Shown here: positions 13,933-53,257 of the stretch, piece after piece
Layout: each line of letters starts with the position of its first letter
How positions within the stretch are numbered: the first letter of the stretch is position 1
NCBI GenBank assembly: GCA_030594205.1
Contig: JAUVFR010000006.1
Span: 629 to 64,628, forward strand
Length of the DNA stretch: 64,000 nucleotides
Reading direction: 5' to 3'
Source of the DNA: Methanobacteriota archaeon
Lineage (GTDB): Archaea > Thermoplasmatota > Thermoplasmata > RBG-16-68-12 > JAJISG01
Position numbers and translations under genes: made by a program
Notes under the pieces: generated by a model
The model's database searches: none
Told to the model about the DNA's origin: nothing
What the model saw: the letters and a program-made list of their open reading frames with translations, nothing else

Positions 13933-13970
13933 GTTTTCGGCCCTGATAACACTAGCCGAACGTTTATATG
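13933..13970 (+). promoter_or_regulatory. Promoter with GTTTTC-N6-GATAAC element and TATA box TTTATATG
   Basis: Element 13933-13950, TATA 13963-13970; same geometry recurs at other GTPase-cluster promoters. Confidence 0.6.
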
Positions 13971-13999
13971 TGCACCCCTTGGAGGGGGGAACGAGGGTC

Positions 14000-14563
14000 A
14001 TGCCGGGCAAGAGGATGAAGATGAAGGTGTGCCTCGTAGGGGAGGCCGCCGTGGGGAAGACCAGCCTCATCCGCCGGTTCGTTCACGACGACTTCGACGA
14101 CAAGTACATTCAAACCTTGGGGACCAAGGTCTCCAAGAAAGAGATCGCCCTCGACGTCCCGAAGCACGGGGAGTTCACCGTGGACATGACCGTCTGGGAC
14201 ATCATGGGACAGAAGGGCTTCCGCGAGCTCCTCAAAGATGCCTACTTTTACGGGGCCAAGGGCATCATCGCAGGGTGTGACCTCACCCGGAAGGCCACCC
14301 TCGACGACCTCGACGACTGGATCGAGGGGGTCTACAGCGTCACCGGTCGGGTGCCCATCGAAATCTTCGCCAACAAGGCGGACCTCAAGGAGAAGTGGGA
14401 GCTCACCGAGAAGGAGGTGGAGCAGTTCTCCAAGGCCTACGACTCCCCCTACCACTTCACCAGCGCGAAGACGGGGGACAGCGTGGAGGAGGCCTTCCGC
14501 AACCTTGCCGCGCGGATCGCCTCGGAGCGCCTCGCCGATCGCCCGGCCACGGTCAAGGCCTGA
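14000..14563 (+). CDS. Rab-like small GTPase (Ras superfamily) 1
   Basis: GEAAVGKTS, YIQTLG, WDIMGQ, NKAD, SAK. Confidence 0.93.
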   Translation: MPGKRMKMKVCLVGEAAVGKTSLIRRFVHDDFDDKYIQTLGTKVSKKEIALDVPKHGEFTVDMTVWDIMGQKGFRELLKDAYFYGAKGIIAGCDLTRKATLDDLDDWIEGVYSVTGRVPIEIFANKADLKEKWELTEKEVEQFSKAYDSPYHFTSAKTGDSVEEAFRNLAARIASERLADRPATVKA

Positions 14564-14580
14564 CGGACCCCCAGAATCTA

Positions 14581-14617
14581 AAATCACGGGTGATAGGCTC
14601 GTGGTGGCTTTTATCTG
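14581..14617 (+). promoter_or_regulatory. Promoter with AAATC-N6-GATAG element and TATA-like TTTATCTG
   Basis: GATAG at 14592, TATA at 14610 (18 nt offset). Confidence 0.5.
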
Positions 14618-14641
14618 CTAAGGGACCCAAGCGCAACTGGG

Positions 14642-15178
14642 ATGCCGGTCCTCCTCCCTCCCAAGGAACAGGTCCTGAAGCTGAAGGTCTGCTTCGTCGG
14701 GGAGTTCGCCGTGGGGAAGACCAGCTTGGTCAACCGGTTCGCTCACGACACCTTTCAGGGCCGCTACATGGCCACCATCGGGGCCAAGATACAGAAGGTG
14801 GACCTGAAGGTCGACCAATCCAGGGTCATCATGACGCTCTGGGACATCATGGGAGAAAAGGGCTTCCGCGAGCTGCTGCGGGAGGCCTATTTCGAGGGGG
14901 CGAACGGCCTCGTTGCGGTCTGCGACCTGACGCGTCCGGCCAGCTTGTTGGACTTGGAGGAATGGATCGCCGCGGTCTATCGCATCGCGGGACGAATCCC
15001 CCTCGTCATTGTGGCCAACAAGGCCGACCTAACCGAGCATGCCGTCGTCACAGAGGAGGAGGTCCAGGCGTTTGCTCGGCGACACGACTGCGAGTCTTAC
15101 ATCACCAGCGCGAAGACCGGAGAGGGCGTCGGTGAGACCTTCCTGGCCATCGGGCGTGGAATGGCCCGACTGGCGTGA
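14642..15178 (+). CDS. Rab-like small GTPase 2
   Basis: GEFAVGKTS, YMATIG, WDIMGE, NKAD, SAK. Confidence 0.92.
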   Translation: MPVLLPPKEQVLKLKVCFVGEFAVGKTSLVNRFAHDTFQGRYMATIGAKIQKVDLKVDQSRVIMTLWDIMGEKGFRELLREAYFEGANGLVAVCDLTRPASLLDLEEWIAAVYRIAGRIPLVIVANKADLTEHAVVTEEEVQAFARRHDCESYITSAKTGEGVGETFLAIGRGMARLA

Positions 15179-15202
15179 CCCGCGGGGCAACTTGGGGCCC
15201 CA

Positions 15203-15241
15203 GATATCGGGCATGATAACGGAGTCTATAGGGTTTTATAA
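15203..15241 (+). promoter_or_regulatory. Promoter with GATATC-N6-GATAAC element and TATA TTTTATAA
   Basis: GATAAC at 15215, TATA at 15234 (19 nt offset). Confidence 0.6.
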
Positions 15242-15282
15242 CTCGACCCAAAGTAGCTCAGACTGCGCGTGGGGCGTGTTCG

Positions 15283-15828
15283 ATGGTCGAGCAAGAGAAG
15301 ATGAAGGTCAAGATCTGCCTCGTCGGCGAAGGAGCCGTGGGGAAGACCTGTCTCATCCGGCGTTTCGTCCATGACGAGTTCGAAGACCGGTACATTTCCA
15401 CCTTGGGGGCCAAGGTCTCCAAGAGGGAGATTATCGTCGACGGCGCGAACGGCGGTGAGGTGGCCGTGGACATGACGATCTGGGACATCATGGGCGAGAA
15501 GGGGTTCCGGGAACTGCTCAAGGAAGCCTACTTCCACGGGGCACAAGGCGTCCTGGCCGTCTGCGACCTGACACGCCGGGACACCCTCTATGACCTGCAC
15601 GATTGGGTCAAGGCGGTCAACAAGGTGACCGGTGACATCCCGGTCCAGTTCCTCGCGAACAAGAAGGACCTCGCAGACCAGAGAAGCTTCGAGGACAAGG
15701 AGATGGAGAGCGTGGCCGCGAAATACAACTCCGCGTTCCTCTCCACCAGCGCCAAGACCGGGGACAATGTGAGTGAAGCCTTTGAGAAGCTGGCCCGGAT
15801 GATCGCGAAGCGGCTCGTGCCGCAGTAG
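15283..15828 (+). CDS. Rab-like small GTPase 3
   Basis: GEGAVGKTC, YISTLG, WDIMGE, NKKD, SAK. Confidence 0.93.
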   Translation: MVEQEKMKVKICLVGEGAVGKTCLIRRFVHDEFEDRYISTLGAKVSKREIIVDGANGGEVAVDMTIWDIMGEKGFRELLKEAYFHGAQGVLAVCDLTRRDTLYDLHDWVKAVNKVTGDIPVQFLANKKDLADQRSFEDKEMESVAAKYNSAFLSTSAKTGDNVSEAFEKLARMIAKRLVPQ

Positions 15829-15903
15829 CCGCTGGCTGTGATTCCTCCCCCGGCCGAGCCCTCGGCGCTCGCCTTCAAGTAGCATCTTCCTGATTGAGCG
15901 CCC

Positions 15904-16155
15904 GTGCCGACAGGAACGGACAAGGGCCGTCCTACTCTGTCTTCCTCGTTCGGCTTGCTCTCAATCGCCCTCATAACATACGGCGCCTCAGCCTTCGTCC
16001 TGGCTGCCTCGGCGGGCTCGTTCGCGGCAGTAATCGCGATTGGCGGGGGACCGACCGGAGTCGTCCTTGACCGACTGGCAAATTCTCTAGGCATTGTTGG
16101 CATCGGTCCTCTCGGTGGGGCAGTGGTCCTTCTTGTCCTCTCCTTTCGCGCATGA
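15904..16155 (+). CDS. Hypothetical membrane protein (possibly the 5' half of a frameshifted gene)
   Basis: Two hydrophobic segments; ATGA overlap with the next ORF. Confidence 0.5.
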   Translation: MPTGTDKGRPTLSSSFGLLSIALITYGASAFVLAASAGSFAAVIAIGGGPTGVVLDRLANSLGIVGIGPLGGAVVLLVLSFRA

Positions 16156-16673
16156 AGGTGGTCGCGGAGGATGCCCCCGGGCACTTTGGGCAAGCCTGGC
16201 CCCTCATCCAAGGGGGCTGGATCCTGTCTTGGGTACTAGTCGGAATCGCTTTGGTTCTCGGTGTTCTCCTTATCTTCGCAAGAGGTACTCGCTTCGAAGG
16301 GGCCCGCGCATCGTTCGGGCTTGCCAGCGGCTTCGCAGCCCTGTCCTTCCTCGCGGCCATCTCAATCCCTGCTCTCATCAGGACCAAGGCCCGGCAGGAC
16401 ACGGTCTTCTGGGTCCTGATGGTGGCAGTTGCTCTCGGGGCCGTGGGGGTGAGCGGCGAAATGGCCCTCATGCTCCCACCATTGATCCGGATTCCTTCGT
16501 GGATCACCCTAGGAGGTTTCCCGTTGCTGAATTGGAACCTCCCCTTCGGGGCACTCGTTGGGACGAGTGCCCTTCTCATCAGCCTTTCTTATCGGGTGTT
16601 GGCCAGGAAGCAAGAAACCGTTGAACGACGCGGACCGAACGCGACCCACCTATCGGCACCACGACGACCCTAG
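16152..16673 (+). CDS. Hypothetical multi-pass membrane protein
   Basis: About four hydrophobic segments. Confidence 0.6.
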   Translation: MKVVAEDAPGHFGQAWPLIQGGWILSWVLVGIALVLGVLLIFARGTRFEGARASFGLASGFAALSFLAAISIPALIRTKARQDTVFWVLMVAVALGAVGVSGEMALMLPPLIRIPSWITLGGFPLLNWNLPFGALVGTSALLISLSYRVLARKQETVERRGPNATHLSAPRRP

Positions 16674-16793
16674 AGGCGTGGTGCGCTGAATCTCGTCCCC
16701 CGTGGACGAACCCAGCGGCCCTCCCGATTCTCTGGGAGAAGGTTTAATATGAAAGCGGAAGTATTTTCCACTGTTCAGACGGGATGACGCTCG

Positions 16794-18770
16794 ATGAGTG
16801 TTAGGGACAAAGAGGCGACCACTGAAGGCGGCATGCCATCCCTCGAAGGGTGGATTGCCACCCAAGACTTTGAGACCACGGCGGACATCCGCGTGCCCGA
16901 GGGGCTGGTTGAACAGGTCATCGGACAGGAGGAAGGCGTCAGGGTCGCACGCAAGGCGGCGGACCAGAAGCGTCATGTGATGCTTATCGGCGACCCCGGA
17001 ACGGGCAAGTCCATGATGGCCCGGGCCATGTCGGAGCTCCTCCCGCGGGAAGAGCTCCAGGATACGATTGTCTACCACAACCCAGAAGACCCCAACGAGC
17101 CCAAGATTCGAATCGTTCCCGCAGGCAAGGGCAAGGAAATCGTTCAGGCTCACAAGGCGGACGCGATGCGGCGCAAGGAGCAGCGAGCCTCGATGATGAC
17201 GACCATCATCGTTGTGATTGTCCTCATGTCCGCTATCCTGGCCTTCATTACCACTCCACCTCAGCCCATGATCCTCCTCTTCGGCATTCTGATCGCCGTC
17301 ATCATCTTCTGGGCCACCCGGACCATGGGGAACCGTCAGGATATGTTGGTCGTCCCCAAGCTCCTGGCCGGTCACGATCCGGACGACATGCCCGCTTTCA
17401 TCGACGCCACGGGCTCCCACGCGGGGGCCCTCCTGGGAGATGTCCGCCACGACCCCTTCCAGTCTGGCGGCCTCGAGACCCCTGCGCATGAACGGGTCGA
17501 GGCCGGCTCCATCCACAAGGCTCACAAGGGCATCCTTTTCATCGACGAAATCAACACGCTCCGATTGGAGAGTCAGCAGAGTCTGTTGACCGCCCTGCAG
17601 GAGAAGCAGTTCAGCATCGTCGGCCAGAGCGAGCGAAGTGCCGGGGCGATGGTCAAGACAGAGCCGGTCCCGTGCGACTTCATTCTCGTGGCTGCCGGAA
17701 ACTTGGATGCCCTCGGTAACATGCATCCCGCTCTTCGGTCCCGCATCCGCGGGTACGGTTATGAGGTGTACGTCAAGAGCGTCATGCCCGACACCTTGGA
17801 CAGCCGAGAGAAGATGGTTCGGTTCGTCGCCCAGGAAGTCGTCAAGGACGGGAAGATCCCCCACTTCGACAGGGAAGGGGTCCGGGAGGTCATCCATGAA
17901 GCGCAGCGGCGGGCCGGCCGCCGGGGTCAGCTGACCCTGCGACTCCGCGAGCTGGGCGGCCTCATCCGGGTGGCCGGGGACATCGCCCGCGAAGAAGGCG
18001 ACGCCGTCACTGGGGCGGACCACGTCATCGCCGCGAAAGGGATGGCGCGCAGCCTGGAGCAGCAGGTGGCCGACCGGTACATCGAGCACCGCAAGGAGTA
18101 CAAGACCTTCGTAACCGAGGGGTCGATGGTGGGCGTCGTGAACGGCATGGCTGTCCTGAACGCCGACCCCAGCATGTCTGAGTTCTCCGGGATCGTCATG
18201 CCGATTGTCGCCGAAGTGACGCCGGCCCAGAGCCGGAATGATGGGAAGATCATCGCCACGGGCCGCCTCGGTGAGATCGCCCGCGAGGCAGTCCAGAATG
18301 TCTCCGCTCTCATCAAGAAGTATACGGGCGAGGACATCAGCAACCACGACATCCACGTCCAGTTCGTGGGGACCTACGAAGGGGTGGAGGGGGACAGTGC
18401 CTCCATTTCCGTGGCCACGGCAGTCATTTCCGCTCTCGAAGAGGTGGAAGTAGACCAGCGGTGTGCCATGACAGGTTCCCTGAGCATCCGAGGCCAGGTC
18501 CTGCCCGTCGGCGGCATCACCGCAAAGATCGAGGCGGCGGCCGAGATGGGCTTCAAGAAGGTCATTATTCCCAAAGCCAACGTCAACGACGTTCTCATCG
18601 AGAGCCGATACCGAGGTGAGATTGAAATCATCTCGGTAGAGACGCTCAAGGAAGTCCTGGACCACGCCCTGGTCGGCCCGAAGAAGAACGGCCTCGTGAG
18701 CAAGCTGGCCGACATGGTCTCGACTCGACGCGAGCCCGTCGTCCCCCCGGACCGGGCCGTCCCCCAGTAG
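16794..18770 (+). CDS. lonB: Archaeal membrane-anchored ATP-dependent protease LonB
   Basis: GDPGTGKS Walker A, two-TM insert, LFIDE Walker B, GDSAS catalytic Ser, GGITAKI catalytic Lys. Confidence 0.96.
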
Positions 18771-18780
18771 GGGCCCTACG

Positions 18781-19302
18781 TTGGCGGGAGGCACTCCCTC
18801 TCGTGTTCTGTTCGTGGGCCGCTTCCAGCCGTTCCACCTGGGCCACCTGCACATGGTGAAGTCGCTGGTGCGCGAGTTTGACGAAGTGGTTCTGATCCTC
18901 GGGAGCAGCCAGGCCTCTCACACGTCCAAGAATCCGTTCAGCCTGGAGGAACGCACGAGGATGATTCGAGAGAGTCTCCAGGCCGAGGCGGTGGAGGCGG
19001 TCCGGATTGTCCCCATGCGTGACGTAGGGGATCACGCCGCCTGGCTAAGCGAACTTCGCATCCTCGCTCCGGCCTTTGGGGCCGTGGCGACGCACGACGG
19101 CGTGACGAGACACATCTTCAAGGAGGCCGGGTACAGGGTCCTGAACCGGCCTCTCCTCGACCGGGAAGTCCTCTCAGGCACGGAGGTCCGGAAACGCATC
19201 CGTGCAGGACAGGATTGGGAGCAACTAGTCCCCGGCGCGGTTCGTTCGATCATCCGCGAGCTTGATGCGGTCGAGCGAATCCGGGCCCTGGATGATCAAT
19301 AG
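18781..19302 (+). CDS. nadM: Nicotinamide-nucleotide adenylyltransferase
   Basis: GRFQPFHLGH, KNPFS..ER, SGTEVR. Confidence 0.9.
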   Translation: MAGGTPSRVLFVGRFQPFHLGHLHMVKSLVREFDEVVLILGSSQASHTSKNPFSLEERTRMIRESLQAEAVEAVRIVPMRDVGDHAAWLSELRILAPAFGAVATHDGVTRHIFKEAGYRVLNRPLLDREVLSGTEVRKRIRAGQDWEQLVPGAVRSIIRELDAVERIRALDDQ

Positions 19303-19763
19303 AGAACCAACAGCGTCAGGATTGTTCCGACCGAGAACCCGGAGACCGTGAGGTTGAGGGCAGGAGCCCAGCGGCGGCTCATGCCGGCCACGCGACCCCA
19401 CTTCTGCCCTCGGCGTGGCCAGGTATGGATTCCCGGTTCCGCTAGGCTGTCCAGCAAGAGATGCGAGGCCAGCCCTGTCAGACAGGCGCCCGCGAGAGTT
19501 GAAAGAGAGTCAAGCGACAAGAGTCCCGCAAAGCCGGCGAGGCTCAACGCGGCGAGGACGAGCAGGGCCCAGACCAGGCCGTAGGCCAGGGAATGGCCGT
19601 ACGGCGTCCTGGGACCCGATCTGCGATCCAACTCCAGATCCGGCAGGAGGGCCGTCAGGGCGGCATAGAACCCGTACGCCGTCAACGGCACGCCCTGGGA
19701 AAGGGATGTGAAGACGGAGGATAGGGCAAGCGCGAACAACGCATGGGCCAAGAGATTCGCCAT
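19296..19763 (-). CDS. Membrane-bound metal-dependent hydrolase (YdjM-like)
   Basis: H near the N-terminus, LLPDL, GHSL, SHLLLD motifs. Confidence 0.75.
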   Translation of the reverse strand: MANLLAHALFALALSSVFTSLSQGVPLTAYGFYAALTALLPDLELDRRSGPRTPYGHSLAYGLVWALLVLAALSLAGFAGLLSLDSLSTLAGACLTGLASHLLLDSLAEPGIHTWPRRGQKWGRVAGMSRRWAPALNLTVSGFSVGTILTLLVLY

Positions 19764-19915
19764 GTGCCAGGCGGGGGGTTGGGGACCTTCACGGTCGCGC
19801 CTACCTGCAGACTGCACGACACGACCGAGGCCTTGCAGAGCGACCTGGCTCGGACCCCTTCGCCTGCACCGAGGAGAAAGAAGGCTTATTGGCCGAGCCC
19901 CATTGCATTTCCGGA

Positions 19916-21824: not shown

Positions 21825-21914
21825 GCCGTTGGAAGTTCCCGTCCCCTTAAGGGCTTGCAGGCAGCAATGCCTCCCAGCGGGGCGCTCGCATCGAGGGGCG
21901 ACCAGGGTCGCCCC

Positions 21915-23564: not shown

Positions 23565-23624
23565 GGTTCGGGACGAAGGGGGGGAACAAAACGCCTGGAG
23601 CCTACATGCAGGCTGCCTGGTCAC

Positions 23625-36453: not shown

Positions 36454-36529
36454 GGGTTCGCCCGTGAATCTCGGCCCTGAAAGTCTCCGCCATGCCTTTT
36501 AATACGGGCCTTTCCGTAGAGCGGCCAGG

Positions 36530-38014
36530 ATGGAGTCCCTGGCTGACGAGGTCGAAGAAGTCAGGGCCCTCGTAGGTCGCCATTTCGCCATTTACGACAT
36601 CCGGGTTCGGCCTGAGGCCATCGCCGTTTTCGTCCGCGCGGAAGCCCCGCAGCTCGACGAGCGGTTCGAGGCCTTGCGCCTCGAGATGCGAGGGGGGAAG
36701 TACCTCCCCTTGCTCCGCCTCGAAGGCGGCGAACACATCCTCTACGTTCAGCGGAGTCCCCCCCGCCGGTTTCGTGGAATCTGGCTGAACGTCGTCTTGT
36801 TGGCGGCGACTCTGGCAACGACCCTCATCGCCGGGATGATCCACTGGGCGGGTTACAACAGGTCGGAGGACATTCTCACGCTCTCTAACGCCCTCTTCGG
36901 CGGCCTATTCTTCACGCTCCCCCTCATGGCAATCCTCGGAACGCATGAGATGGGGCATTTCATTATGGCACGCCGACACAAGGTCGCCGCCTCCCTGCCC
37001 TTCTTCATCCCCGCCCCGCCCCCGGTTATCTTCGGAACCTTTGGTGCCCTTATCAGCATGCGGGAGCCCATCCCGAACAAGAAGGCCCTCATGGACATCG
37101 GGATGTCGGGTCCCCTCCTCGGACTGGCCGTGGCGCTGCCCGTCACCCTCCTGGGTCTCTACCTCAACGCTCTCGATCCACCACTGGCAGGGACGAACGT
37201 TGGCGGCCAGGCTGTCGTCAACCTCCCGATCCTCTACCAGGCCATGCTCTTCGCCATCCCGATCCCGGACAACGCCCTCCTTCACCCCACGGCCTTCGCA
37301 GGATGGGTCGGCTTTCTGGTCACGGGACTCAACCTTCTCCCCGCGGGCCAGCTCGATGGGGGCCACGTCGCGAGGGCTCTCCTTGGGGACAAAGCCAAGT
37401 ATCTGAGCTACGCGGCCTTCGCCATCCTGCTCGCCCTCGGCTTCGTGTTCTTCTTCTCCTGGATCATCCTGGCTTTTCTGGTCCTCTTCCTCGGCCTCCG
37501 CCACCCCCCGCCCCTGAACGACATCACGCGCCTGGACGTCGGCCGCAAACTCGCGGGCGTTGGGGTATTTGTCCTCCTGATTTTGTCCCTCCACTGGATA
37601 CCCCTCCAGGAGATTCCCGTCGACGTGGCGGCGCAGTTCCGCGACCCCGCCGACCCCCTGGTAGCCATCGAGGAGGACAACGTGACGCTGACAAACTTCA
37701 CCGCGAACTACACCTTCATCCTGACCATCACGGGGAACGTCCGCACCGTGGTCGAGCTGAGCTTCGGCAGCTCCATCGAGAATCTGCCTGACTGGGAGAT
37801 TCTTTTCACCAGCGTGGATAACATGGAGATACGCGGGGAGAACGCCACCGTGATCCTGGATGCGTCGCGTTCCGCGGTGGGAACGATACTCATCCGTGCA
37901 CCCATCTTTGTTCCCCCCGGGGCCACCCGGTTCCTCGAGATCGTGGGGGACCTCCGGTCGGAGGCCTTCGGCGGTCGGGCGCAGGCCACGTTGTCCCTCA
38001 GGATCGATCTCTAG
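36530..38014 (+). CDS. Site-2 (M50) intramembrane metalloprotease with extracellular C-terminal extension
   Basis: HEMGH, NLLPAGQLDGGH; C-terminal beta-rich region with sequons. Confidence 0.9.
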   Translation: MESLADEVEEVRALVGRHFAIYDIRVRPEAIAVFVRAEAPQLDERFEALRLEMRGGKYLPLLRLEGGEHILYVQRSPPRRFRGIWLNVVLLAATLATTLIAGMIHWAGYNRSEDILTLSNALFGGLFFTLPLMAILGTHEMGHFIMARRHKVAASLPFFIPAPPPVIFGTFGALISMREPIPNKKALMDIGMSGPLLGLAVALPVTLLGLYLNALDPPLAGTNVGGQAVVNLPILYQAMLFAIPIPDNALLHPTAFAGWVGFLVTGLNLLPAGQLDGGHVARALLGDKAKYLSYAAFAILLALGFVFFFSWIILAFLVLFLGLRHPPPLNDITRLDVGRKLAGVGVFVLLILSLHWIPLQEIPVDVAAQFRDPADPLVAIEEDNVTLTNFTANYTFILTITGNVRTVVELSFGSSIENLPDWEILFTSVDNMEIRGENATVILDASRSAVGTILIRAPIFVPPGATRFLEIVGDLRSEAFGGRAQATLSLRIDL

Positions 38015-40137: not shown

Positions 40138-41664
40138 CTACCCGATGTACCGCTCGTCGTCTGACTCGTGGTAGTTCCAGTACTGGTAGGGCGCAGTCGC
40201 CCGCTGGGCCTCGGTAAGGTCCCTGGATAGGCCCCCCTCGTAGGAGCCGTACCGCTCCTTGATCTGCTCCTCCACGGTGCGGGCAATCTTCACGGCCCGG
40301 GCGATGTGGGACGCCTCGATACGATCCCCGCTCTCGTTCACGACCAGGTCCCCGGCGGACCGGATTAGGCCGCCCATCTCCCGAAGCCGTAGAGTCAGGG
40401 AGCCGCTCTTCCCCTCCTGCTCCTTCGCCCGGCGGCGCGACTCTTTGATGATCGCCTCCACGGCCTCCTTGGAGGCGTGAGGGATCCGTCGGTCCATCGC
40501 GATCTCCTGGGCCACGAACTGGGCCATCTTCGCCCGATTTGTCTCGTTGTCGGGCATGGTGGTCTCCACGAGGACCTCGTAGCCGGATCCGACGATCCGG
40601 GAGCGGAGCGGGGAGAGGACGTAAGGGAGATCTTGGATGTTGCAGGCCGCGACGAAAATGAAGTCACACGGAACCGCATCCACACGTACGCTTGCCCCCG
40701 CGCTCTGCGGGTTCCGGCCGCTAATGGGGAACCGCTTCTCCTGCATGGCCGTGAGGATGTAACGCTGCAGAGGGCCGAGTTGCTGCAGCTCGTCGATGAA
40801 CAGGACCCCTTCGTGGGATTCATGAATCGCTCCGGCGACAACACGCACGTAGGGCTCGGTCCCTAGCTGCGGATGTCCGCCGTAGGGGTCGTGTTTCACG
40901 TCCCCTAGGAGTTCCGTCTCGCTGGCCCCCGTGGCCAGGAGGAACGGGTGGCGCTCCAGGGGGACCAACACCTTGTGGGGGCTCTCCTTCTCAATCTTCC
41001 GCCGCTTCTCCAGTGCCTTCTGGTCGAGGACCTTGACGAGTTCGCCCGCCCGCTCGTAGACCACGACCTCCTCCTTCCCGAACTGCTTCCGGGTCGTGGT
41101 GACGCGGTCCTTCTGGCTCATCTGTCCCAGGGTCACCTCCATAATCCCGCTGAGCAGGTCTCCGAAGGGGTTCCCCATGTTCTGCACGGCCGCCTTGGGC
41201 CGGGAACACCCGGGGCACACCGCGTCGGAGGGGGGGGAGTAGTGACCGCAATGGACGCACCGATACCGGAGGCGCTCCGCCACGCTGATGGGGACCTCCT
41301 CCGGGTCAATGAGTTCGCCCTCCGCCCCCTTGAGAGCCGACACCTCCCTGAGGGCCTCCTCGCGCCCCTTGACTTCCACAAGGGGCCTCTCGGGGCTCTC
41401 CGGATTGTGGACGACCCGTATCTCCTCGTTGGGTGGAGAAAGGTGAAGCGCGAGTGCCTGGGCGATCATGGACTTGCCCGTGCCAGGCGGCCCCACGAGG
41501 AGGAGGTGACGACGCTGTTTGGCCGCGATGCGCGCGAGACCGACCGCTTCGTCCTGCCCAACCACCCGATTCAGGGGGTCGGGAGGAATCAGGACGTCCT
41601 CGGTGGTCTCCATCTCCTCCCAGGAGAAGCCCTTTTGGGCGTCCAGGATGCCCTTGGAGACGAT
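40138..41664 (-). CDS. Lon-like AAA+ ATPase lacking the protease domain, with a C4 Zn ribbon (probable ATC start at 41664; first ATG at 41613)
   Basis: GPPGTGKS, LLGDV.HDP, LFIDE, LRSRI, TLRLRE; CVHC..CPGC; ends right after the AAA lid. Confidence 0.85.
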   Translation of the reverse strand: MVSKGILDAQKGFSWEEMETTEDVLIPPDPLNRVVGQDEAVGLARIAAKQRRHLLLVGPPGTGKSMIAQALALHLSPPNEEIRVVHNPESPERPLVEVKGREEALREVSALKGAEGELIDPEEVPISVAERLRYRCVHCGHYSPPSDAVCPGCSRPKAAVQNMGNPFGDLLSGIMEVTLGQMSQKDRVTTTRKQFGKEEVVVYERAGELVKVLDQKALEKRRKIEKESPHKVLVPLERHPFLLATGASETELLGDVKHDPYGGHPQLGTEPYVRVVAGAIHESHEGVLFIDELQQLGPLQRYILTAMQEKRFPISGRNPQSAGASVRVDAVPCDFIFVAACNIQDLPYVLSPLRSRIVGSGYEVLVETTMPDNETNRAKMAQFVAQEIAMDRRIPHASKEAVEAIIKESRRRAKEQEGKSGSLTLRLREMGGLIRSAGDLVVNESGDRIEASHIARAVKIARTVEEQIKERYGSYEGGLSRDLTEAQRATAPYQYWNYHESDDERYIG

Positions 41665-41673
41665 AGGAGCACC

Positions 41674-42975
41674 TCACTTCACGGCGAGATCGTCCGCGGT
41701 ATAGACGCGAACGCCCTCTGGCCGCTGTTCGATGCTGCCTTCCTTGACCCCTATAACCATCTCCATGCCGTTATCGCTCGCGATATCGAGGATGCGCTGG
41801 GTGATGATGCCGTCGAAGACGAGAACCTTGACGCCCTTCCCCTCCTTCTTCATGAGGTTCACGAGGTCGCGGACGGCGACCTCTTTGGGTTTCGCCTTCC
41901 CACCCTTGATGATCTGCGCCTTTGTGGTTCCTCGGAGGGATCGGAGAATCTCCTGGTACTCCTGAAGATCCTCAGGAACGCTGACCTCGGGCTCCGGAGC
42001 GCGAACCTTCTTGGGCGGAACCTTCTTGGGCGGAACCCTCTTGGGCGGAGCCCTCTCGGCGGGGCGCCCCGTCACCCGCGCTTCCTTCGCTGGTCTCGCC
42101 GGCCTCTGAGCCGACTTCGCCTTGCGAGGCCCTCGGCTGGGTCCAAGGCCAAACATATCGACGAACTGCTCTGCGGGCATCTTGTTCCGTAAGGCCTTCA
42201 TGATCTGCTTCTGGGTCAGCTCCTCGACCTCCCGGCCGCGAGGAGCCTTTGCGACGAAGTCCACCTCCGCCACCTGGAGGAGTTCCTTGAGGATGAGGTC
42301 CCCGCCCCGGTCGCCGTCGACGAAGGCGGTCACGACCTTCTCCTTGGACAGGTTCGTGATGGCGGAGGGAATGTGGGTGCCTTCTGCCGCGATGGCGTTC
42401 TTGATGCCGACCTTGAGGAGGTTCAACACGTCCGACCGGCCCTCGACCACGATGATGGCGTCGGTGTCCTCCACGTTCGGACCCGCAGGCAGCTTGTCAG
42501 GCCCATGGCTGACGATCTCCGCTACCTGGACGGCCTGGCGGACCTCCTCCTTCAGGTCGACGCTGGTCGCCTTGGAGCCCGCGAGCATCTCCGAGAGAAT
42601 CTCCTTCGCCCGATCGACGACCTGGGTCCGCTTCGTGATGCGGACGTCATCCACGCCTTCCACGCTCACTGTCGCCCGACAAGGGCCGATGCGCTCGATG
42701 GTCTCCAAGCCCGCGGCCAGGATGGAGGTCTCCACCTGGTCCAAGCTGGAAGGGATGAGAATCGATCCATCCGTCATTCCCTTCTTCGAGACGACATCCA
42801 CTTCGATTCGGCCGATGCGGCCGCTCTTCTGTAAGTCCCGGAGATCCAGCTCCTCGCCGAGGAGCCCTTCCGTTTGTCCGAATACTGCGCCGATGACGTC
42901 GGGTTTTTCCACGACCCCCTCGGCCTCCAACTTTGCGCGAATCTGATACTTTGTCGTACTAGGATCTACTGCCAT
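41674..42975 (-). CDS. dnaG: Archaeal DnaG (primase-like, exosome-associated)
   Basis: VEKPDVIGAVFGQTEGLLG, TOPRIM VVEGRSDV, DGDRGG. Confidence 0.96.
   Translation of the reverse strand: MAVDPSTTKYQIRAKLEAEGVVEKPDVIGAVFGQTEGLLGEELDLRDLQKSGRIGRIEVDVVSKKGMTDGSILIPSSLDQVETSILAAGLETIERIGPCRATVSVEGVDDVRITKRTQVVDRAKEILSEMLAGSKATSVDLKEEVRQAVQVAEIVSHGPDKLPAGPNVEDTDAIIVVEGRSDVLNLLKVGIKNAIAAEGTHIPSAITNLSKEKVVTAFVDGDRGGDLILKELLQVAEVDFVAKAPRGREVEELTQKQIMKALRNKMPAEQFVDMFGLGPSRGPRKAKSAQRPARPAKEARVTGRPAERAPPKRVPPKKVPPKKVRAPEPEVSVPEDLQEYQEILRSLRGTTKAQIIKGGKAKPKEVAVRDLVNLMKKEGKGVKVLVFDGIITQRILDIASDNGMEMVIGVKEGSIEQRPEGVRVYTADDLAVK
42004..42063. repeat. 15-bp tandem repeat (about 4 copies) encoding the PPKKV linker in DnaG
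   Basis: aaccttcttgggcgg x2, aaccctcttgggcgg, agccctctcggcggg. Confidence 0.8.
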
Positions 42976-43553: not shown

Positions 43554-43662
43554 GTCCAACTCCGGATGGAGCGAGGTCGCCCCGCAGGGTTCCAGTTCCC
43601 GACACGGCTTAACCTTCACCCTTCATCATCACCCTCAAATAAGGACCGTCGGATGTTCCACC

Positions 43663-44295: not shown

Positions 44296-44310
44296 CCTCG
44301 GAGCCGCGGG

Positions 44311-44325
44311 ACAACCCTTATAAAG
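44311..44325 (+). promoter_or_regulatory. rRNA promoter (BRE/TATA CTTATAAA)
   Basis: AT-rich box ~210 nt upstream of the mature 23S 5' end. Confidence 0.6.
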
Positions 44326-44530
44326 ACGCCATCCCATTGTAGATGGACTCTTCAACGGGGGGCTCTGCCCGCGACTTGGCATCCCTGAGTTGATGTTGAG
44401 GAGCGCGGGTGCACTCGATGAGGACGCCTCATCGGGGAAGGGTCGAGACGCTGGAGGGGCTTCGCCTCGCTTGCACAGCGGTCCGTGAGGCGGTCATACG
44501 CAACCTGGACGTTAGTCAGGCCAGTAAGTC

Positions 44531-47716
<3,186 letters not shown>

Positions 47717-47828
47717 ACACCCTTGCTGGTCTGGCCGTTCATCAGGTCGCGTATGGTCGTCTCTGCACCTCCCACTTCGTTTTCGATCGGCCCGAAGCTT
47801 CAAGCCGCTCACCCGGCTTCTTCCGTCC

Positions 47829-49100
47829 GTGAGAGGGGCTCGGAATCTCGCCCCCGGAGGCCGCGAGCGGCGGGTCGAAGTGGATTGCCCCGTGTGCGTC
47901 GGGGACTGGAAGCGATGTCGCTTCGCCACCTGCCCGAAGTTACGGGGGGTCCGGGAGTGGACCCGGGAGGCCCAACGACACCAGGGCACGAGCCTCTATG
48001 GGGCCACGCCCCCCGCTGCTTTCGTGGGGCAGTGGGGCTACCCCCGCGTCCTGGTCGGACCTCTCCTTCCTCCGACGGATGTCGATGTCTCCCTCATGGA
48101 CGCCGAGGAACGGTGGTTGGGACTGCCGCTGCAGGAGATCCTTCGACTGCGGATGTCCATGGTCCGGGGGAAGCGCCCGCAACGAGTCGAGGTCGCCGCC
48201 CCGGACGACAGGCCACTGGAGGCACTCCAAGAGGTCGCCATGGCCTCGGATCCGGTGTACGCAGAGATGGAATTAACGAAGCGGCCGAACCTGGACATCT
48301 ACTTCTCACCCCGCGGGAAGCCCATGGGGCCTTCGGCCCCCTTCGAGTCCTTCGAACTTGCAGAGAACCCCACGGTTCCGCGCAGGGTCGACTACATCGT
48401 CTCCGACGGCGACCTGCGAGCGGGGCCCGGGACGTGGGACCTGTACGAGCACGGCATTGGGCAACGGCACTTGACCCGCCTCCTGAGCGTCGGTCTCCTT
48501 GGACAGACACGGCATCGACGACTTGTGCCAACGGAGTGGAGCATCACCGCCATCGATGACATCGTCGGGAAGCACCTCCGGGACCGGGTCCGGTACCATC
48601 CCGAGCTGGGGGAGGTTCACCTGTACGGCGCGGGAGCGGTGGCGAACAACGTTCAGATTCTCCTACTCCCCGGACCCTGGATGTTCGAGGCGCTGGAAGG
48701 TTGGGAGGGACATCCGGCGGGCCCCGCGTCCGACTTTGAGCGGGCTTGGGGACGAAAGGACTACCCCACGAACTTGGTCGGAGCGTACCACGCCTCTCGC
48801 CTTCCGGTCCTCGAGCACCTGGATACCATTCGGAGACAGGCCATCGCCCTGGTCTTCCTGGAGGTCTACCGGGAGTGGATCCCGCTTGGAGTGTGGCGGT
48901 TCCGGGAGGTGGCCCGGGAAGCCTTTCGACGGCGGGGGCGGCGGTTTTCGAGCCTGGATGAGGCCCTGGAGGTCCTCCGAGGCCGTCTCCGGATTCCCCT
49001 GGACCGGTGGCTTCAGAAGAGCACTCTCTACTCCTTCTACCGGAACCAGCGCCGGCTGGAGGACTTCGTGGAACCGTCGTCGGCGAGAAGCCATTATTAG
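47829..49100 (+). CDS. nreA: Nre-family DNA repair protein (NreA)
   Basis: C..C.....C....CP, PP..FVG..GYP.V, R.LVPT.WSITA.D, PLGVW..RE, C-terminal PIP QRRLEDF; start could be GTG 47880. Confidence 0.88.
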   Translation: MRGARNLAPGGRERRVEVDCPVCVGDWKRCRFATCPKLRGVREWTREAQRHQGTSLYGATPPAAFVGQWGYPRVLVGPLLPPTDVDVSLMDAEERWLGLPLQEILRLRMSMVRGKRPQRVEVAAPDDRPLEALQEVAMASDPVYAEMELTKRPNLDIYFSPRGKPMGPSAPFESFELAENPTVPRRVDYIVSDGDLRAGPGTWDLYEHGIGQRHLTRLLSVGLLGQTRHRRLVPTEWSITAIDDIVGKHLRDRVRYHPELGEVHLYGAGAVANNVQILLLPGPWMFEALEGWEGHPAGPASDFERAWGRKDYPTNLVGAYHASRLPVLEHLDTIRRQAIALVFLEVYREWIPLGVWRFREVAREAFRRRGRRFSSLDEALEVLRGRLRIPLDRWLQKSTLYSFYRNQRRLEDFVEPSSARSHY

Positions 49101-49128
49101 CCGTCCCCTTTCTGCCTCGGGGAGTGGT

Positions 49129-49790
49129 ATGGACTTCGAGGCCTATCGCGATGAGTTTCCCATCTTTGAGACGAAGGACTACCTGAACACGTGCTCTCTG
49201 GGACGAGGCGAATGCGGATCCGCCCGACCACCCTCGGCTTAGTGGTCGTCCTCTTCGCCTTCATTTTCACCGTAGCCATCTCCGGCTTCCTCTTCTGGTT
49301 CCTGGGCGGCCTCCTGTTCCGGCCCGAAGGCGGAATCGCTCTCGTGGAGGCGGTTCGACCCTCGGCATTCCCGTCTGCCCATCATCAAGGGGGGCTTGTC
49401 CTCGATGGCCTCCTCGGGGGCCCCGGTGTTCCCGATGCGGCCGCCCTCGGCCCTACAGTCCTTGTGCTGGCCCCTGACGATCTGGGCCACGCGACGTCTC
49501 TATCCGGACGTCCTTGAACGGGATAGGGGAACTGGCATCGCGTCGGCCAGCGATATGCCTCTTGTGCCGTCCCTGAATAGGGAGTTAGGGCAACGTGAGA
49601 TTGACACCCACCAGATCGCGGTCCTTCCGGGTGGGCACGCCTTCGTGGTGACGAACGACCAAGAGCTCTGCGAGTCCACCGATGGGGGCGCGACCTGGAC
49701 ACAAGTCGGGGCGGACTTCCCTCCGCATCTGGTGCCTCCTCGCGCTCTCGAAGGATTGAGGAATTTCCGGAGCGGCTTTACCCTAAATAG
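49129..49790 (+). pseudogene. Patchwork of gene remnants (class-V aminotransferase N-terminus, TM-anchor fragment, Asp-box/BNR fragment)
   Basis: MDFEAYRDEFPIFETKDYLNTCSLG then loss of similarity; hydrophobic MRIRPTTLGLVVV...; STDGGATW at about 49675-49700. Confidence 0.55.
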
Positions 49791-49810
49791 CGAGAGCCAG
49801 ATGAGCTATC

Positions 49811-50473
49811 ATGGCACTGCCTCTGACGCTCTTCGTGGACATCCACGAGCCGGAGGAAATTCAGGCTCACATAGAGGAGGCCGGGGTTCCCGTCGAGCGC
49901 AAGACCCTCGCTCCCGGAGACTACATCGTGGGAGAGGTGGGCGTGGAGCGCAAGACCATCCAGGATTTCTTCTCCTCCATCGTCAACAAACGGCTCTGGG
50001 AACAGGTTTCCCGCCTTCGCGAGACCTATCCTCGGCCCCTCGTGGTGGTCGAAGGGGATCTGGCTCTCGTGGACGAGTATAGCAATCCCAAGGTGTTCTG
50101 GGGCGCGTTCCTGGCCCTCCACTTCGAGGAAGGGGTGCCCGTTCTCTTCGCGCCGAACTACCGCCACACGGCCCTCCTGCTGGAAACCCTCTACCAGCAG
50201 CAACTAAAGGCGCCCATAACCTTCAGCCTCCGCCACAAGCCCAAGCTTCTCAGTCTCCCCCAGCAACAGGAGTTCGCGGTCCAGGGCCTCCCGAACATCG
50301 GGGACACCCTGTCGAAAGCCCTCCTGGAACGCTGCGGGTCCGTGCGAGGGGTCATGACCGCCTCCGAGGGGGACCTCTTGAAAGTGCCAATGATCGGCCC
50401 GAAGAAGGCCCTCCGCGTTGCGGAGCTGCTGGACGCCCCCTACGAGGGAGAGCAGCGGAAGATCGAAGATTAG
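49811..50473 (+). CDS. xpf: Short XPF/ERCC4 structure-specific nuclease with HhH domains
   Basis: GDY, VERKT..DF..S....RL.EQ, LPNIG, VPMIGPKKA. Confidence 0.88.
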   Translation: MALPLTLFVDIHEPEEIQAHIEEAGVPVERKTLAPGDYIVGEVGVERKTIQDFFSSIVNKRLWEQVSRLRETYPRPLVVVEGDLALVDEYSNPKVFWGAFLALHFEEGVPVLFAPNYRHTALLLETLYQQQLKAPITFSLRHKPKLLSLPQQQEFAVQGLPNIGDTLSKALLERCGSVRGVMTASEGDLLKVPMIGPKKALRVAELLDAPYEGEQRKIED

Positions 50474-50543
50474 GGGAAGAGTCTAGATAGGTGAGCTTGG
50501 AGCCTCGGTCTCCCGCCTTGTCCTTGCGGGGCTGGCGGGGCCA

Positions 50544-51179
50544 TTACCGCCCGTTGCGGCGTACCGGCAGGGGGATGAGACGCCGGAGCTGGGCGCCCAC
50601 CTTCTCTCCCTTCTCCGCCGGTTTGGATCCCTTCTCCTCGTACTCCCCCTCCAGGAGCCGGCTGAGGTAGTCGTCGACGAACGGGACTTCCTCCACGATC
50701 CCGCTCCAGTCCCGGAGCTCGTCCCCATGGTTCCGCTCGAGATCGTCGAGGGCCCTCTGCATCTGGGCGATGATGTCCTCGGGAGGATCGCCCCGGATCA
50801 TTGTCGCCAGGACCGCGTGCTGGCCGGACACGATGGAGATCTTCAGTTCGCCAAAGGACATCTCGTTGAGCTCCCCCGATTCCCCCTTGAAGGCGTCCCG
50901 AATGAACTCTTGGACGGCCCGAAGCATGCCGGAGAGGATGTCGCTGTCCGCGTAGGGCTTCAGACGTCGCGTGAGGTGGCGGAGGAGGGTGCCGCTGCGC
51001 TGGAGGAGGAAGACCTCCTCCACGTACGTCTCCCGGGTCTCCGTGCCTTCCGTCTTTCTCCTGCGCCTCCGGAGGTTTCTGAGCATTTGATACGTGATGA
51101 GCGAGAGCCAGACACCCTGAATCGCGATGACACCAACGACCAGAATGATGATTGCATCCGCGACCCCTTGGGTGACCAT
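50544..51179 (-). CDS. Single-pass membrane protein with cytoplasmic longin/roadblock-like domain
   Basis: N-terminal TM followed by RRRRRK; VEEVFLL..SG.LL.H...D.DILSGML.AVQ.FI.DAF...L.EM.FG..KI pattern (fold call is inference). Confidence 0.7.
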   Translation of the reverse strand: MVTQGVADAIIILVVGVIAIQGVWLSLITYQMLRNLRRRRRKTEGTETRETYVEEVFLLQRSGTLLRHLTRRLKPYADSDILSGMLRAVQEFIRDAFKGESGELNEMSFGELKISIVSGQHAVLATMIRGDPPEDIIAQMQRALDDLERNHGDELRDWSGIVEEVPFVDDYLSRLLEGEYEEKGSKPAEKGEKVGAQLRRLIPLPVRRNGR

Positions 51180-51267
51180 GATGTGCCTCGCAGAGGTGCC
51201 CCGAAATCGCTGGCGCCCGAATCAGAGTGCACCGAATCCCGGGGAGAGAGGCCTCTTCGGGTCGGAG

Positions 51268-51291
51268 CATAAACCTTGGCTCCTGACTATC
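51268..51291 (-). promoter_or_regulatory. Promoter of the longin-like gene: GATAG element and TTTATG box
   Basis: GATAG begins at 51291, TTTATG at 51273 (18 nt offset). Confidence 0.45.
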
Positions 51292-51599
51292 AGCAAGGGA
51301 TGTTGCCTCCGCGTCCGCCCCGCTGCCCGCTATCGCTTGGGCAGCTGGGCCACGGCGGCATCCTGGGTCTCCTCACTCGGAATCGCCCGGACCCGGCTCC
51401 TGCGTTTCACCCCTTCGGGGCCAGAGCCCGCGGAGCCGCCCCAGGAGCCCTCCGAAGCCGCTCAGGGAGAAGCCCTCATCGGCCCATAGATGTTGGAGGA
51501 GGTGTCGAATTCCAATGACCGCCGACAAGCGGATCGGGACCTGCGGGCATCCCGAGATTCTGAAAGGAGATGGGCCTCACTCTGAAGGGAGCACAGGAT

Positions 51600-51637
51600 A
51601 CTGTCGCTCTCGATAACGGCCGCGTTAGGTTTATAAC
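51600..51637 (+). promoter_or_regulatory. Promoter with ACTGTC-N6-GATAAC element and TATA TTTATAAC
   Basis: GATAAC at 51612, TATA at 51630 (18 nt offset). Confidence 0.6.
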
Positions 51638-51663
51638 GAAATAGGCACGAGTTCCCTCGTCCG

Positions 51664-51924
51664 ATGCCAACCGCATCCCCCCTTTTTGAGCTGCAACCGA
51701 CATCCCAGAAGGAAGCGGACGAGTGGATTCTCGTCCTGATCGGCGCCCTCCGGAAGAAATCGGGCAAGGGAGAGTGGAGCCTCCGGATCGTGCATGACGA
51801 CGGGCAGGAACTGGTCTTCGAGTGCGACCCTCCGCTCTCGAACGAGGACGTGTCGGAAGTCTTTGTCCGCTACCACATTCGGTCGATGACCGCGAATGAA
51901 GAAGACCTGAGGGAGGGAGAATGA
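51664..51924 (+). CDS. Small hypothetical protein coupled to GTPase 4
   Basis: ATG ~25 nt after the TATA box; ATGA overlap with the GTPase. Confidence 0.65.
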   Translation: MPTASPLFELQPTSQKEADEWILVLIGALRKKSGKGEWSLRIVHDDGQELVFECDPPLSNEDVSEVFVRYHIRSMTANEEDLREGE

Positions 51925-52481
51925 CGTCGCTGGAGGAGCCTCGGATCAAGCTGAAGATCTGTCTGGTGGGTGAGCCGGCCGTCGGCAAGACGTCTCTCAT
52001 CCGGCGCTTCGTGCGCAACGAGTTCACCGACGACTACACGGTGACCCTGGGGACTCGCATCTCCAAGAAGGAACTCCGCCTCCCGGTCTCCGACGGAGGG
52101 GAACCAGAGGGGGTGACCCTCGTGATCTGGGACATCATGGGTCAGGAGGGCATTCGGGAGCTCCTAAAGGAGGCGTTCTTCCTAGGCGCTCAGGGAATCC
52201 TTATGGTCTGCGACGTGACCCGGCCCGAGACCCTCCCCAGACTAGAGGGCTGGCGGGAGTCGGTCCAAGAGATCGCCGGACCGCTGCCTTCCTACCTCCT
52301 CGCCAGCAAGGCCGATCTGACCGACCAGGCGTCGTTGCCTGAGACAGACCTGGCCGCGACATGTCAAGGATGGAATTGCTCCTGGCAGTTCAGCAGCGCA
52401 AAGACCGGTCAGGGCGTCGAAGAAGCCTTCGAGATTCTCACTCGCACGGTCCTCAATGGACAGCGCGCACCCGCGCAGTAG
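51921..52481 (+). CDS. Rab-like small GTPase 4
   Basis: GEPAVGKTS, YTVTLG, WDIMGQ, SKAD (variant G4), SAK. Confidence 0.92.
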   Translation: MTSLEEPRIKLKICLVGEPAVGKTSLIRRFVRNEFTDDYTVTLGTRISKKELRLPVSDGGEPEGVTLVIWDIMGQEGIRELLKEAFFLGAQGILMVCDVTRPETLPRLEGWRESVQEIAGPLPSYLLASKADLTDQASLPETDLAATCQGWNCSWQFSSAKTGQGVEEAFEILTRTVLNGQRAPAQ

Positions 52482-52529
52482 TTCGTCCTATGCCCGAGGA
52501 TCCGCCTCCACTGTGCAGAATCCTCAATC

Positions 52530-53108
52530 TCACAGCACGGCTGGCGCGACACCCTGCTCTGCGAGAATATTCTCGAGGACCTTCTCCCCCAGGGTGTGGA
52601 ACACGGGTTCCACGTTCTCCCCCATCTGTGCGCTCGTGAAATAATAGGGGGAATCAAACGCGGAGGCGTACCCGTCCACCTCGCGCTTGCCCACGAGCAT
52701 TACCGCCTCGTCCCTGAGATCGGACTTGTTGATGGCGTAGACGACCGGGACAGGGCCCGCTACCTGGAAGACCGACTCGACCCACTCGTCGAGAGCCCGA
52801 AGGGTGGAGTGGCGGATGATGTCACACACGGCGATGATGCCCTGGGTCCCGAGGAAGAAGGCCTCCCGAAGGAGGTCACGAACCTGCTTCTCACCCATAA
52901 TGTCCCAGATGAGCATATCCATGTTGACGACGCCCTCCGTGCCCGGCATCCGCATCCGGAGCTCCTTTTTCGAGATCTTGGCACCCAGCGTGGTGATGTA
53001 CCCTTCGTCGAACTCGTCCAAGACGTATCGCCGAATCAGACTGGACTTGCCGACGGCGGCCTCGCCGATAATACAGATCTTGACCTTGATGCGTTCACCG
53101 GGTTCCAC
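52530..53108 (-). CDS. Rab-like small GTPase 5
   Basis: GEAAVGKSS, YITTLG, WDIMGE, NKSD, SAQ. Confidence 0.92.
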   Translation of the reverse strand: MEPGERIKVKICIIGEAAVGKSSLIRRYVLDEFDEGYITTLGAKISKKELRMRMPGTEGVVNMDMLIWDIMGEKQVRDLLREAFFLGTQGIIAVCDIIRHSTLRALDEWVESVFQVAGPVPVVYAINKSDLRDEAVMLVGKREVDGYASAFDSPYYFTSAQMGENVEPVFHTLGEKVLENILAEQGVAPAVL

Positions 53109-53257
53109 GAGGATCCCCCGCGTCCTTCTGTCCCGGCACCCTCGTTATTAACCTGCCGAACCAATTCTCAGATCGTGTCCAGAATCGACGAGCGCGGTTC
53201 GCAGTCGTACGAAGGGCGGAGGAACGCTCTTAAGCGGGACATGCCACTCCGCCACAC

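Follow-up and report, generated by a model that had tools for sequence, protein, structure and literature searches.

The locus and its promoter element

The DNA analysed here is a stretch of 64,000 nucleotides (nt) from a Thermoplasmata genome (G000:C63:629-64628; assembly of 1.54 Mb, 69 contigs, 64% G+C), and this whole stretch is referred to below as the window. It carries five genes for Ras-family small GTPases, each of which has a full-length match to PF00071 above the cut-off (E 7e-27 to 4e-38, 94-131 bits, cut-off 21.6). The subject of this report is a short palindromic element that is found at the promoters of these genes, just upstream of the B recognition element (BRE) and the TATA box. 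Our data indicate that the element is a real and conserved BRE-proximal site, apparently undescribed, and that the regulon which it marks includes the GTPases but is far wider.

An earlier note on this DNA had described six copies of a shared element, at the promoters of the GTPases and of two open reading frames (ORFs) that it labelled as longin genes. The six letter strings and their offsets were found as it gave them. On the plus strand these are GATAAC at 13945 with TTTATAT at 13963, GATAG at 14592 with TTTATCT at 14610, GATAAC at 15215 with TTTTATAA at 15234, and GATAAC at 51612 with TTTATAA at 51630; on the minus strand they are GATAG at 51291 with TTTATGC at 51273, and GAGAA at 53169 with TTAATAA at 53151. 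The sites were scored in bits using a 20-nt motif model that was learned from the whole genome and read at the fixed offset (Table 1). Four of the six proved to be sound sites, of at least 10.2 bits, while the fifth is weak and the sixth is only a half-site. Two further palindromes in the window had been missed. The element is absent from the rpl3 promoter (TATA at 13891 on the minus strand, -10 bits) and from the strong TATA at 44313 (0.6 bits), which lies some 210 nt upstream of the 23S gene at 44526-47721, in agreement with the earlier note.

Table 1. Element copies, promoters and genes in the window
Feature	Position	Strand	Remarks
Upstream palindrome GGTTTTCGGCCCTGATAACA	13932..13951	+	17.8 bits; BRE/TATA motif begins 27 nt on, at 13959
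BRE/TATA AACGTTTATATGTG	13959..13972	+	14.0 bits; promoter of Ras GTPase 1
Ras-family small GTPase 1	14000..14563	+	187 amino acids (aa); PF00071 E 1.5e-33
Upstream palindrome TAAAATCACGGGTGATAGGC	14579..14598	+	10.2 bits
Weak TATA TTTTATCT	~14604-14619	+	5.4 bits; follows palindrome 14579..14598
Ras-family small GTPase 2	14642..15178	+	178 aa; PF00071 E 3.5e-35
Upstream palindrome AGATATCGGGCATGATAACG	15202..15221	+	17.6 bits; retained at orthologous loci
BRE/TATA	15229-15242	+	12.0 bits; follows palindrome 15202..15221
Ras-family small GTPase 3	15283..15828	+	181 aa; PF00071 E 4.1e-38
Palindrome missed by the earlier reader, GAATCTCGGCCCTGAAAGTC	36466..36485	+	14.0 bits; BRE/TATA at 36493-36506
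Peptidase_M50 membrane protease gene	36530-38014	+	Behind element 36466..36485
AAA+ ATPase gene	40138-41613	-	Behind element 41769..41788; leader would be ~116 nt
TATA	41748-41761	-	7.7 bits; follows palindrome 41769..41788
Palindrome missed by the earlier reader, CGATATCGCGAGCGATAACG (minus-strand letters)	41769..41788	-	14.6 bits
211-aa ORF	50544-51179	-	Behind weak element copy 51285..51304
TATA	51264-51277	-	9.9 bits; follows weak copy 51285..51304
Weak element copy AACATCCCTTGCTGATAGTC (minus-strand letters)	51285..51304	-	6.7 bits; proximal half and poor distal half
Upstream palindrome TACTGTCGCTCTCGATAACG	51599..51618	+	12.9 bits; distal half poor
BRE/TATA	51626-51639	+	12.5 bits; follows palindrome 51599..51618
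86-aa ORF	51664-51924	+	First gene of operon 51664..52481; stop overlaps start of GTPase 4 (ATGA)
Ras-family small GTPase 4	51921-52481	+	Second gene of two-gene operon 51664..52481
Ras-family small GTPase 5	52530..53108	-	192 aa; PF00071 E 7.3e-27
TATA	53142-53155	-	7.6 bits; follows half-site 53163..53182
Proximal half-site TGAGAA only	53163..53182	-	Right offset; full motif below 0 bits

A palindrome with one spacing to BRE/TATA across the genome

The general promoter motif of this genome, AA-N-S-Y-TTAWA, was obtained by expectation maximisation (EM) on the regions upstream of 1040 home-made gene calls. Of the 484 regions with a match, 228 have the motif about 30-42 nt ahead of the start codon, and most transcripts are therefore expected to have no leader or hardly any. 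A scan of the whole genome with this motif gave 967 TATA-like sites, upstream of which all 5-mers were tested for positional bias. The word with the strongest bias was TGATA, with 27 occurrences in a 4-nt interval compared to 1.7 expected (p 3e-23), and GATAA behaved likewise (27 versus 1.9 expected). After these came TTATC, which is the mirror half and is located 10-11 nt farther upstream (17 versus 1.9 expected), and the p-values of the positional enrichment span 1e-11 to 1e-23. A count on the whole genome that makes no use of gene calls placed GATA[AG] 18-21 nt before TTTAT at 15 of 356 words, with 0-3 at other offsets. The looser word GA[TG]A[AG] occurs at the single offset in 43 of the 967 sites and in about 3.6 at any other.

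When EM was run with the position left free on the 45 nt that precede each of the 967 sites, it returned the same near-palindrome, GTTATC-N6-GATAAC, that the earlier note had read from the best copies, and estimated about 114 sites. The consensus is rTTaTCa-N4-tGAtAAy, a palindrome of 16-18 bp with the core ATC-N6-GAT. Its start is exactly 27 nt before the BRE/TATA motif and its proximal edge about 8 nt from BRE, in line with the fixed position that the earlier note described. The centre of the element is about 24.5 bp upstream of the centre of TATA, and the centres of the half-sites are 11 bp apart, or about one helical turn. The offset is exactly 27 in 40 of the 91 EM sites that score at least 8 bits, and at the 294 genome positions with at least 12 bits a TATA follows at +27 in 41 cases, at +26 in 10 and at +28 in 4, with at most 7 at any other offset. 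The inner spacing is equally narrow, with TATC-N6-GATA occurring 14 times in the genome and the spacings N2-N5 and N7-N10 only 0-4 times. In the automated, gene-linked count, the element reached at least 8 bits at 61 of 782 promoters compared to 11 at control offsets. Measured against unrelated promoters, as the earlier note had proposed, the motif is thus enriched at its offset, with TGATA and GATAA at the top of the positional test, and the sharing of the element exceeds chance.

The pattern could in principle be due to chance, to gene duplication, or to a DNA or RNA hairpin that plays no part in initiation. Sequence shared upstream of the three tandem GTPase genes, which are paralogues, could be inherited, and a palindrome could fold. 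However, the promoters of these paralogues have only the half-sites and TATA in common, and unrelated families carry the element as well. The letters of the half-sites are conserved beyond mere complementarity while the spacer varies freely, and the enrichment p-values are at most 1e-11. We consider explanations of this kind exceedingly improbable.

Conservation of the element in relatives

To relate the element to orthologous genes, relatives of GTPase 3 were collected from one genome per species, which gave 66 loci with 59-94% identity. At 60 of the 64 loci with enough upstream DNA, and at 51 of 55 after near-duplicates were removed, the element scored at least 8 bits at exactly 27 nt before BRE/TATA; the conservation that the earlier note wished to see checked is therefore present. 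In the anchored alignment of these loci, hardly any change is seen in TATC or GATAA, the spacer of 6 nt is uninformative, and nothing farther upstream is conserved. Such a footprint is classic for a protein site. Among 20 relatives, GATAA-N{6,24}-TTWA was above control in the genus, in the family and in families f5-f7, and in a genome from another family (G017) the gap was 13-16 in 23 of the 32 listed GATAA...TTWA matches.

The spacing of the palindrome was further compared over a class sample of 121 genomes, where N9 was used as a control of the same codon phase for N6. The 12 other genomes of the order contained 524 copies of TATC-N6-GATA compared to 264 with N9, and N6 exceeded N9 in 11 of the 12. 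One genome flagged as unpublished (G112, with counts of 2 and 1) is included in the sums, with no effect on them. A class-wide excess of TATC-N6-GATA was also considered and was rejected. The backwards-pattern control on which it stood was biased low, with the TAG/CTA that it contains as the suspected reason, and the excess over N9 is confined to the order of the window.

Size and content of the regulon

Composite sites, defined as an element of at least 9 bits followed by a TATA of at least 6 bits at an offset of 25-29, number 87 in the genome. The automated promoter count loses some promoters through imperfect start-codon calls. The regulon roughly comprises 50-110 promoters, or about 5-12% of all promoters. 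The two loci of the window that lie 37 kb apart are linked by the element, as the earlier note had supposed, and loci on other contigs join them.

The families behind the element were determined by a Pfam scan of the 60 best-element ORFs out of 69 usable downstream ORFs outside the window. These include three more Ras GTPases, seven KaiC-like ATPases, four HTH_20-type regulators, three archaeal pilin-like proteins and a DnaA-type ATPase with DUF835, in addition to other AAA ATPases, zinc-ribbon and large surface proteins, an M6 peptidase and a glycosyltransferase; 22 have no family at all. A Roadblock/LC7 gene is likewise among the 60 (C43:18352-18735, which passes Robl_LC7 with 23.7 bits at a cut-off of 23). 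In the automated test, the element was found at 5 of the 7 Ras promoters that the script could call (p 5e-5), at 7 of 12 KaiC-like promoters (p 7e-6) and at 3 of 5 promoters of small winged-helix genes (p 0.004). The Ras promoters were also scored by hand. The genome has 11 Ras matches, and the 11 genes are served by 10 promoters, 8 of which carry the element at 8 bits or more with offsets of 25-28. Only the proximal half is present at two more Ras promoters (53169 on the minus strand and one on C34), and the eleventh Ras gene (C60) has none. Families of signalling and surface proteins that are expanded in the genome are thus strongly over-represented in the regulon, namely the Ras-like GTPases, the KaiC-like ATPases, type-IV pilin-like proteins and winged-helix proteins of about 115 aa, together with a Roadblock protein.

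This content contradicts a regulon dedicated to GTPase and longin genes under one activator, as the earlier note had envisaged. That picture draws on the 8 of 10 Ras promoters, the Roadblock gene and the 60 of 64 related GTPase loci that carry the element. However, Ras genes are a small minority among the 61 of 782 marked promoters and the 87 composite sites; KaiC-like, pilin, winged-helix and protease genes and the 22 of 60 genes without a family are marked as well, and the longin label was not confirmed for either ORF (see below). A dedicated regulon is therefore very improbable.

Promoters with the element are clustered at two places outside the window. On C39:71497-76130 they precede a gene for a GvpD-like KaiC ATPase and then two small winged-helix genes; no ORF was found behind a further element on C39, at 76108. 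On C29:25700-38100 there are five or six such promoters within 12 kb (KaiC-like, DnaA-DUF835, zinc-ribbon, and a 1347-aa surface protein).

Position of the element and the sign of regulation

The reading that we favour, with a probability of about 0.7, is that the element is the cis-regulatory site of a dimeric, probably activating factor which marks a large regulon, with a family of small winged-helix proteins as candidates for that factor. That a protein binds, whether it activates or represses, and which protein it is are all inferred from the DNA; 'activator' is a reading of the position of the element and 'dimeric' a reading of its symmetry. A homodimeric winged-helix protein would bind the palindrome on one face of the DNA, which the 11-bp distance between the half-site centres fits. 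The spacing, which is equally rigid among unrelated genes and among genomes, together with a placement that is always upstream, suggests that the bound protein probably contacts TFB or TBP and would raise initiation. The winged-helix factor would in this way control its own genes along with GTPase, Roadblock, KaiC-like and pilin-like genes.

The position of archaeal sites gives this reading its precedents. In a review of archaeal regulators (PMC4158304), sites upstream of BRE/TATA go with activation, as with Ptr2, which contacts TBP, and TFB-RF1, which contacts TFB; the same has been proposed for TrmBL1/Tgr. Sites at or after TATA go with repression according to the same review, and Phr represses by binding at the transcription start (PMC4158304). 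In our whole-genome placement check, the element was not seen in its own right over TATA or over the predicted start. A small peak of downstream placements over the start site (offsets -24 to -26) was found, and 9 of its 10 members are accounted for by opposite-strand promoters seen in mirror image; a placement of the repressor type over the start site was accordingly rejected. Given the upstream precedents, and given that no copy in its own right overlies the start, we favour a factor that would activate by recruiting TFB or TBP.

The element may alternatively be the operator of a repressor or of a dual regulator, which would hinder TFB or TBP at BRE or would silence accessory genes until a signal leads to release of the protein. 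Phr is the closest solved structure to the candidate factor, most characterised archaeal regulators repress (PMC4158304), and the element promoters have a BRE and TATA of normal strength and so may need no help. On the other hand, the repression cases reviewed there use sites at or downstream of TATA (PMC4158304), whereas the present element is never found there in its own right. We regard a repressor or dual regulator as unlikely, although less so than the other alternatives considered here.

The element could also be an extended promoter element that is read by one of four TFB paralogues, in which case it would define a promoter class and no separate regulator would be needed. The presence of four TFB genes with a single TBP gene could imply several promoter classes, and the rigid spacing to BRE/TATA would suit such a class. 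A symmetric palindrome located 8-25 nt beyond BRE suggests a dimer, though, over a single asymmetric TFB, and the palindrome is tied to winged-helix genes across the class, which points to another protein. A TFB-read promoter class thus appears quite improbable. The four TFB genes are at C64:227155-227706, C51:53291-53839, C39:35554-36093 and C14:47003-47551, and the TBP gene is at C14:18417-18938.

The element was further considered as a rescue for weak promoters. This was rejected, since BRE is no weaker at the element promoters, where AA is present at the BRE position in 14 of 32, compared to 105 of 434 others.

A family of small winged-helix proteins as the candidate factor

Five paralogues of about 110-128 aa have the element in their own promoters (C39:73236, C39:75708, C51:47578, C48:41064 and C43:48615). 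HTH_20 matches all 30 members of this winged-helix family that were compared, and there are weak matches to the TrmB, Phr, Sta1 and Lrs14 models, with the TrmB DNA-binding domain in 16 of 30 members. The family is present in 13 of 13 genomes of the order that were searched, with 4-10 copies each.

The DNA upstream of winged-helix genes was analysed at 40 loci, half of them in the order and half in other families of the class. Bit scores are inflated in genomes of low G+C, and the count of the exact core was therefore relied on. The core ATC-N6-GAT was present at 16 of the 20 loci from the order and at 12 of the 20 from the other families, compared to 0-7 and 0-4 loci, respectively, for other spacings of the core, and at most winged-helix loci the element stands 27 nt before BRE/TATA. 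When a regulator family retains one site in its own promoters throughout a class, this usually signals autoregulation, and it makes the small winged-helix family the candidate factor, which would act on its own genes.

The AlphaFold model of the winged-helix protein is confident, with a predicted local distance difference test (pLDDT) score of 90.7. Its best solved match is Phr of Pyrococcus (2p4w; E 5e-5, TM score 0.65 over 103 columns), followed by ArsR homologues. The protein was also predicted as a homodimer, with a score of 0.53 compared to 0.00 for the best control; the runs share at least 82% of their contacts, the partner has a pLDDT of at least 82, and the predicted interface is symmetric and runs along strand 79-89. 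In calibration, 20 of 30 solved homomers scored at this level, as did 1 of 23 monomers. The pass may, however, reflect only the likeness of the protein to solved dimers of the ArsR/Phr type.

A 204-aa protein of the ArsR type (C64:157529-158143), which also has the site in its promoter, was rejected as the factor because a search with it as query detected it in only 12 of 31 genomes of the order, and in none of the 14 genomes from families f2-f4, which do bear the element. In several genomes of the order, three small winged-helix paralogues lie within about 9 kb (G014:C8, G020:C115, G083:C49 and G126:C25), an arrangement that looks like a conserved cluster.

Several observations weigh against the reading of a winged-helix activator with a large regulon. 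The winged-helix family is also present in 75 of 121 genomes of the class, so that its distribution does not single it out, and it could be merely a conserved target. The sign of regulation is read from position; the BRE of the element promoters, which is not weaker than elsewhere, gives the proposed recruitment no weak promoter to assist. A search for RNA sequencing runs that contain positions 13800-16000 of the window found none. With regard to the targets, the control offsets suggest that about 10-20% of the calls are false, and the housekeeping genes among them, which encode GyrB, topoisomerase I, proteasome alpha and TBP, are possibly false positives. The promoter counts are approximate, since the gene calls were home-made and the genome that was scored also served to train the motif model. 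Outside the order, 108 genomes show almost no excess in the crude genome-wide count (6499 with N6 versus 6079 with N9). Membership also turns over within the order, as seen with a single-copy KaiC-like orthologue that has the site in only 8 of 20 genomes; these include 4 of 4 from the family to which the window belongs, while most genomes of f2, f4 and f7 are without it.

A more far-reaching version of the winged-helix reading, which we put forward only tentatively and consider doubtful, is that Phr/TrmB-like winged-helix dimers of about 115 aa are an ancient, self-regulating activator of the class Thermoplasmata that acts from a single fixed position, about 50 nt before the transcription start. 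Its site would have spread to 5-12% of the promoters of the order and would have wired Ras-like GTPases, Roadblock proteins, KaiC-like ATPases and type-IV pilins into one programme. If this were true, a single master switch would govern a small-GTPase signalling network in a prokaryote, which would serve surface structures or motility.

Comparison with known archaeal systems

The closest known motif is the Thermococcales glycolytic motif (TGM, TATCAC-N5-GTGATA), the site of TrmBL1/Tgr. Both are inverted repeats with a TATCA/TGATA half-site, and both mark a large regulon. According to PMC4158304, upstream placement of TGM means activation and the regulator controls its own gene, which is like the reading proposed here. 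The two differ in spacing, as TGM corresponds to TATC-N9-GATA, which occurs 3 times in this genome compared to 14 for N6. The present element is always upstream of BRE/TATA and never at the start site, whereas TGM is found both upstream and downstream of TATA; its targets are signalling and surface genes in Thermoplasmata, and those of TGM are genes of sugar metabolism in Thermococcales. The candidate factor, at about 115 aa and with no effector-binding domain, is also unlike TrmBL1/Tgr in architecture. On these differences in spacing, position, targets, lineage and factor architecture, the element is outside the TGM family.

The sites of Ptr2 (Methanocaldococcus) and TFB-RF1 (Pyrococcus) abut BRE/TATA on the upstream side, as the present element does, and the mechanism proposed for them, recruitment of TBP or TFB (PMC4158304), is the one presumed for its factor. 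The element differs from them in its motif and in having one rigid spacing at about 5-12% of promoters. Ptr2 and TFB-RF1 act at a few promoters. Phr of P. furiosus, the best structural match of the candidate, likewise has a winged-helix fold, forms a dimer and recognises an inverted repeat. It has about 200 aa and is 22-23% identical to the candidate, which scores 13.3 bits with the NCBIfam Phr model (cut-off 320) and is thus not a member of that family.

A literature search, largely at the level of abstracts, found no description of this motif or regulon. Almost nothing is known of gene regulation in uncultured Thermoplasmata, or of the roles of archaeal Ras-like GTPases and KaiC-like ATPases, and the conserved site offers a testable handle on both. 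It predicts that genes of unknown function act together, including the GTPases, Roadblock, KaiC-like ATPases, pilins and genes with no family, and it names a small protein family as a possible regulator. It may also be an example, on the scale of a genome, of the archaeal TBP/TFB machinery being governed from upstream sites at a strict spacing. Should the candidate prove wrong, the true factor could still be sought by means of the regulon that the site defines.

The two ORFs labelled as longin genes and other features of the window

The 86-aa and 211-aa ORFs are both conserved in Thermoplasmata. Neither matched any family in Pfam or NCBIfam, and their profiles matched no sequence in PDB. With hhalign, the comparison to the genome's own Roadblock protein gave probabilities of 0.2% and 0.1% for the two ORFs. 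A longin or Roadblock identity is therefore unsupported by Pfam, NCBIfam, PDB profiles and hhalign. In Atlas, no Roadblock/longin support was found for the 86-aa ORF, and the 211-aa protein had a weak lead (0.78) to a Roadblock/longin cluster. The AlphaFold 2 model of the 211-aa protein was too poor for a structure search (pLDDT 41.5). The order of elements predicted after its N-terminal helix is bb-a-bbb-a-a, which we take to be longin-like, although the label is unconfirmed.

The divergent pair formed by 50544-51179 (minus strand) and 51664-52481 (plus strand) seems to be conserved, judging from at least two further Thermoplasmata genomes in which the locus tags of the ORFs' homologues are consecutive. 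The element and TATA at 41748-41788 on the minus strand are located within the 3' end of a Toprim (DnaG-like) gene at 41674-42975 and would be an internal promoter for the AAA+ ATPase gene. The 23S rRNA gene contains a group I catalytic intron at 46466-46709 on the plus strand (RF00028, 68.7 bits, E 2.5e-15).

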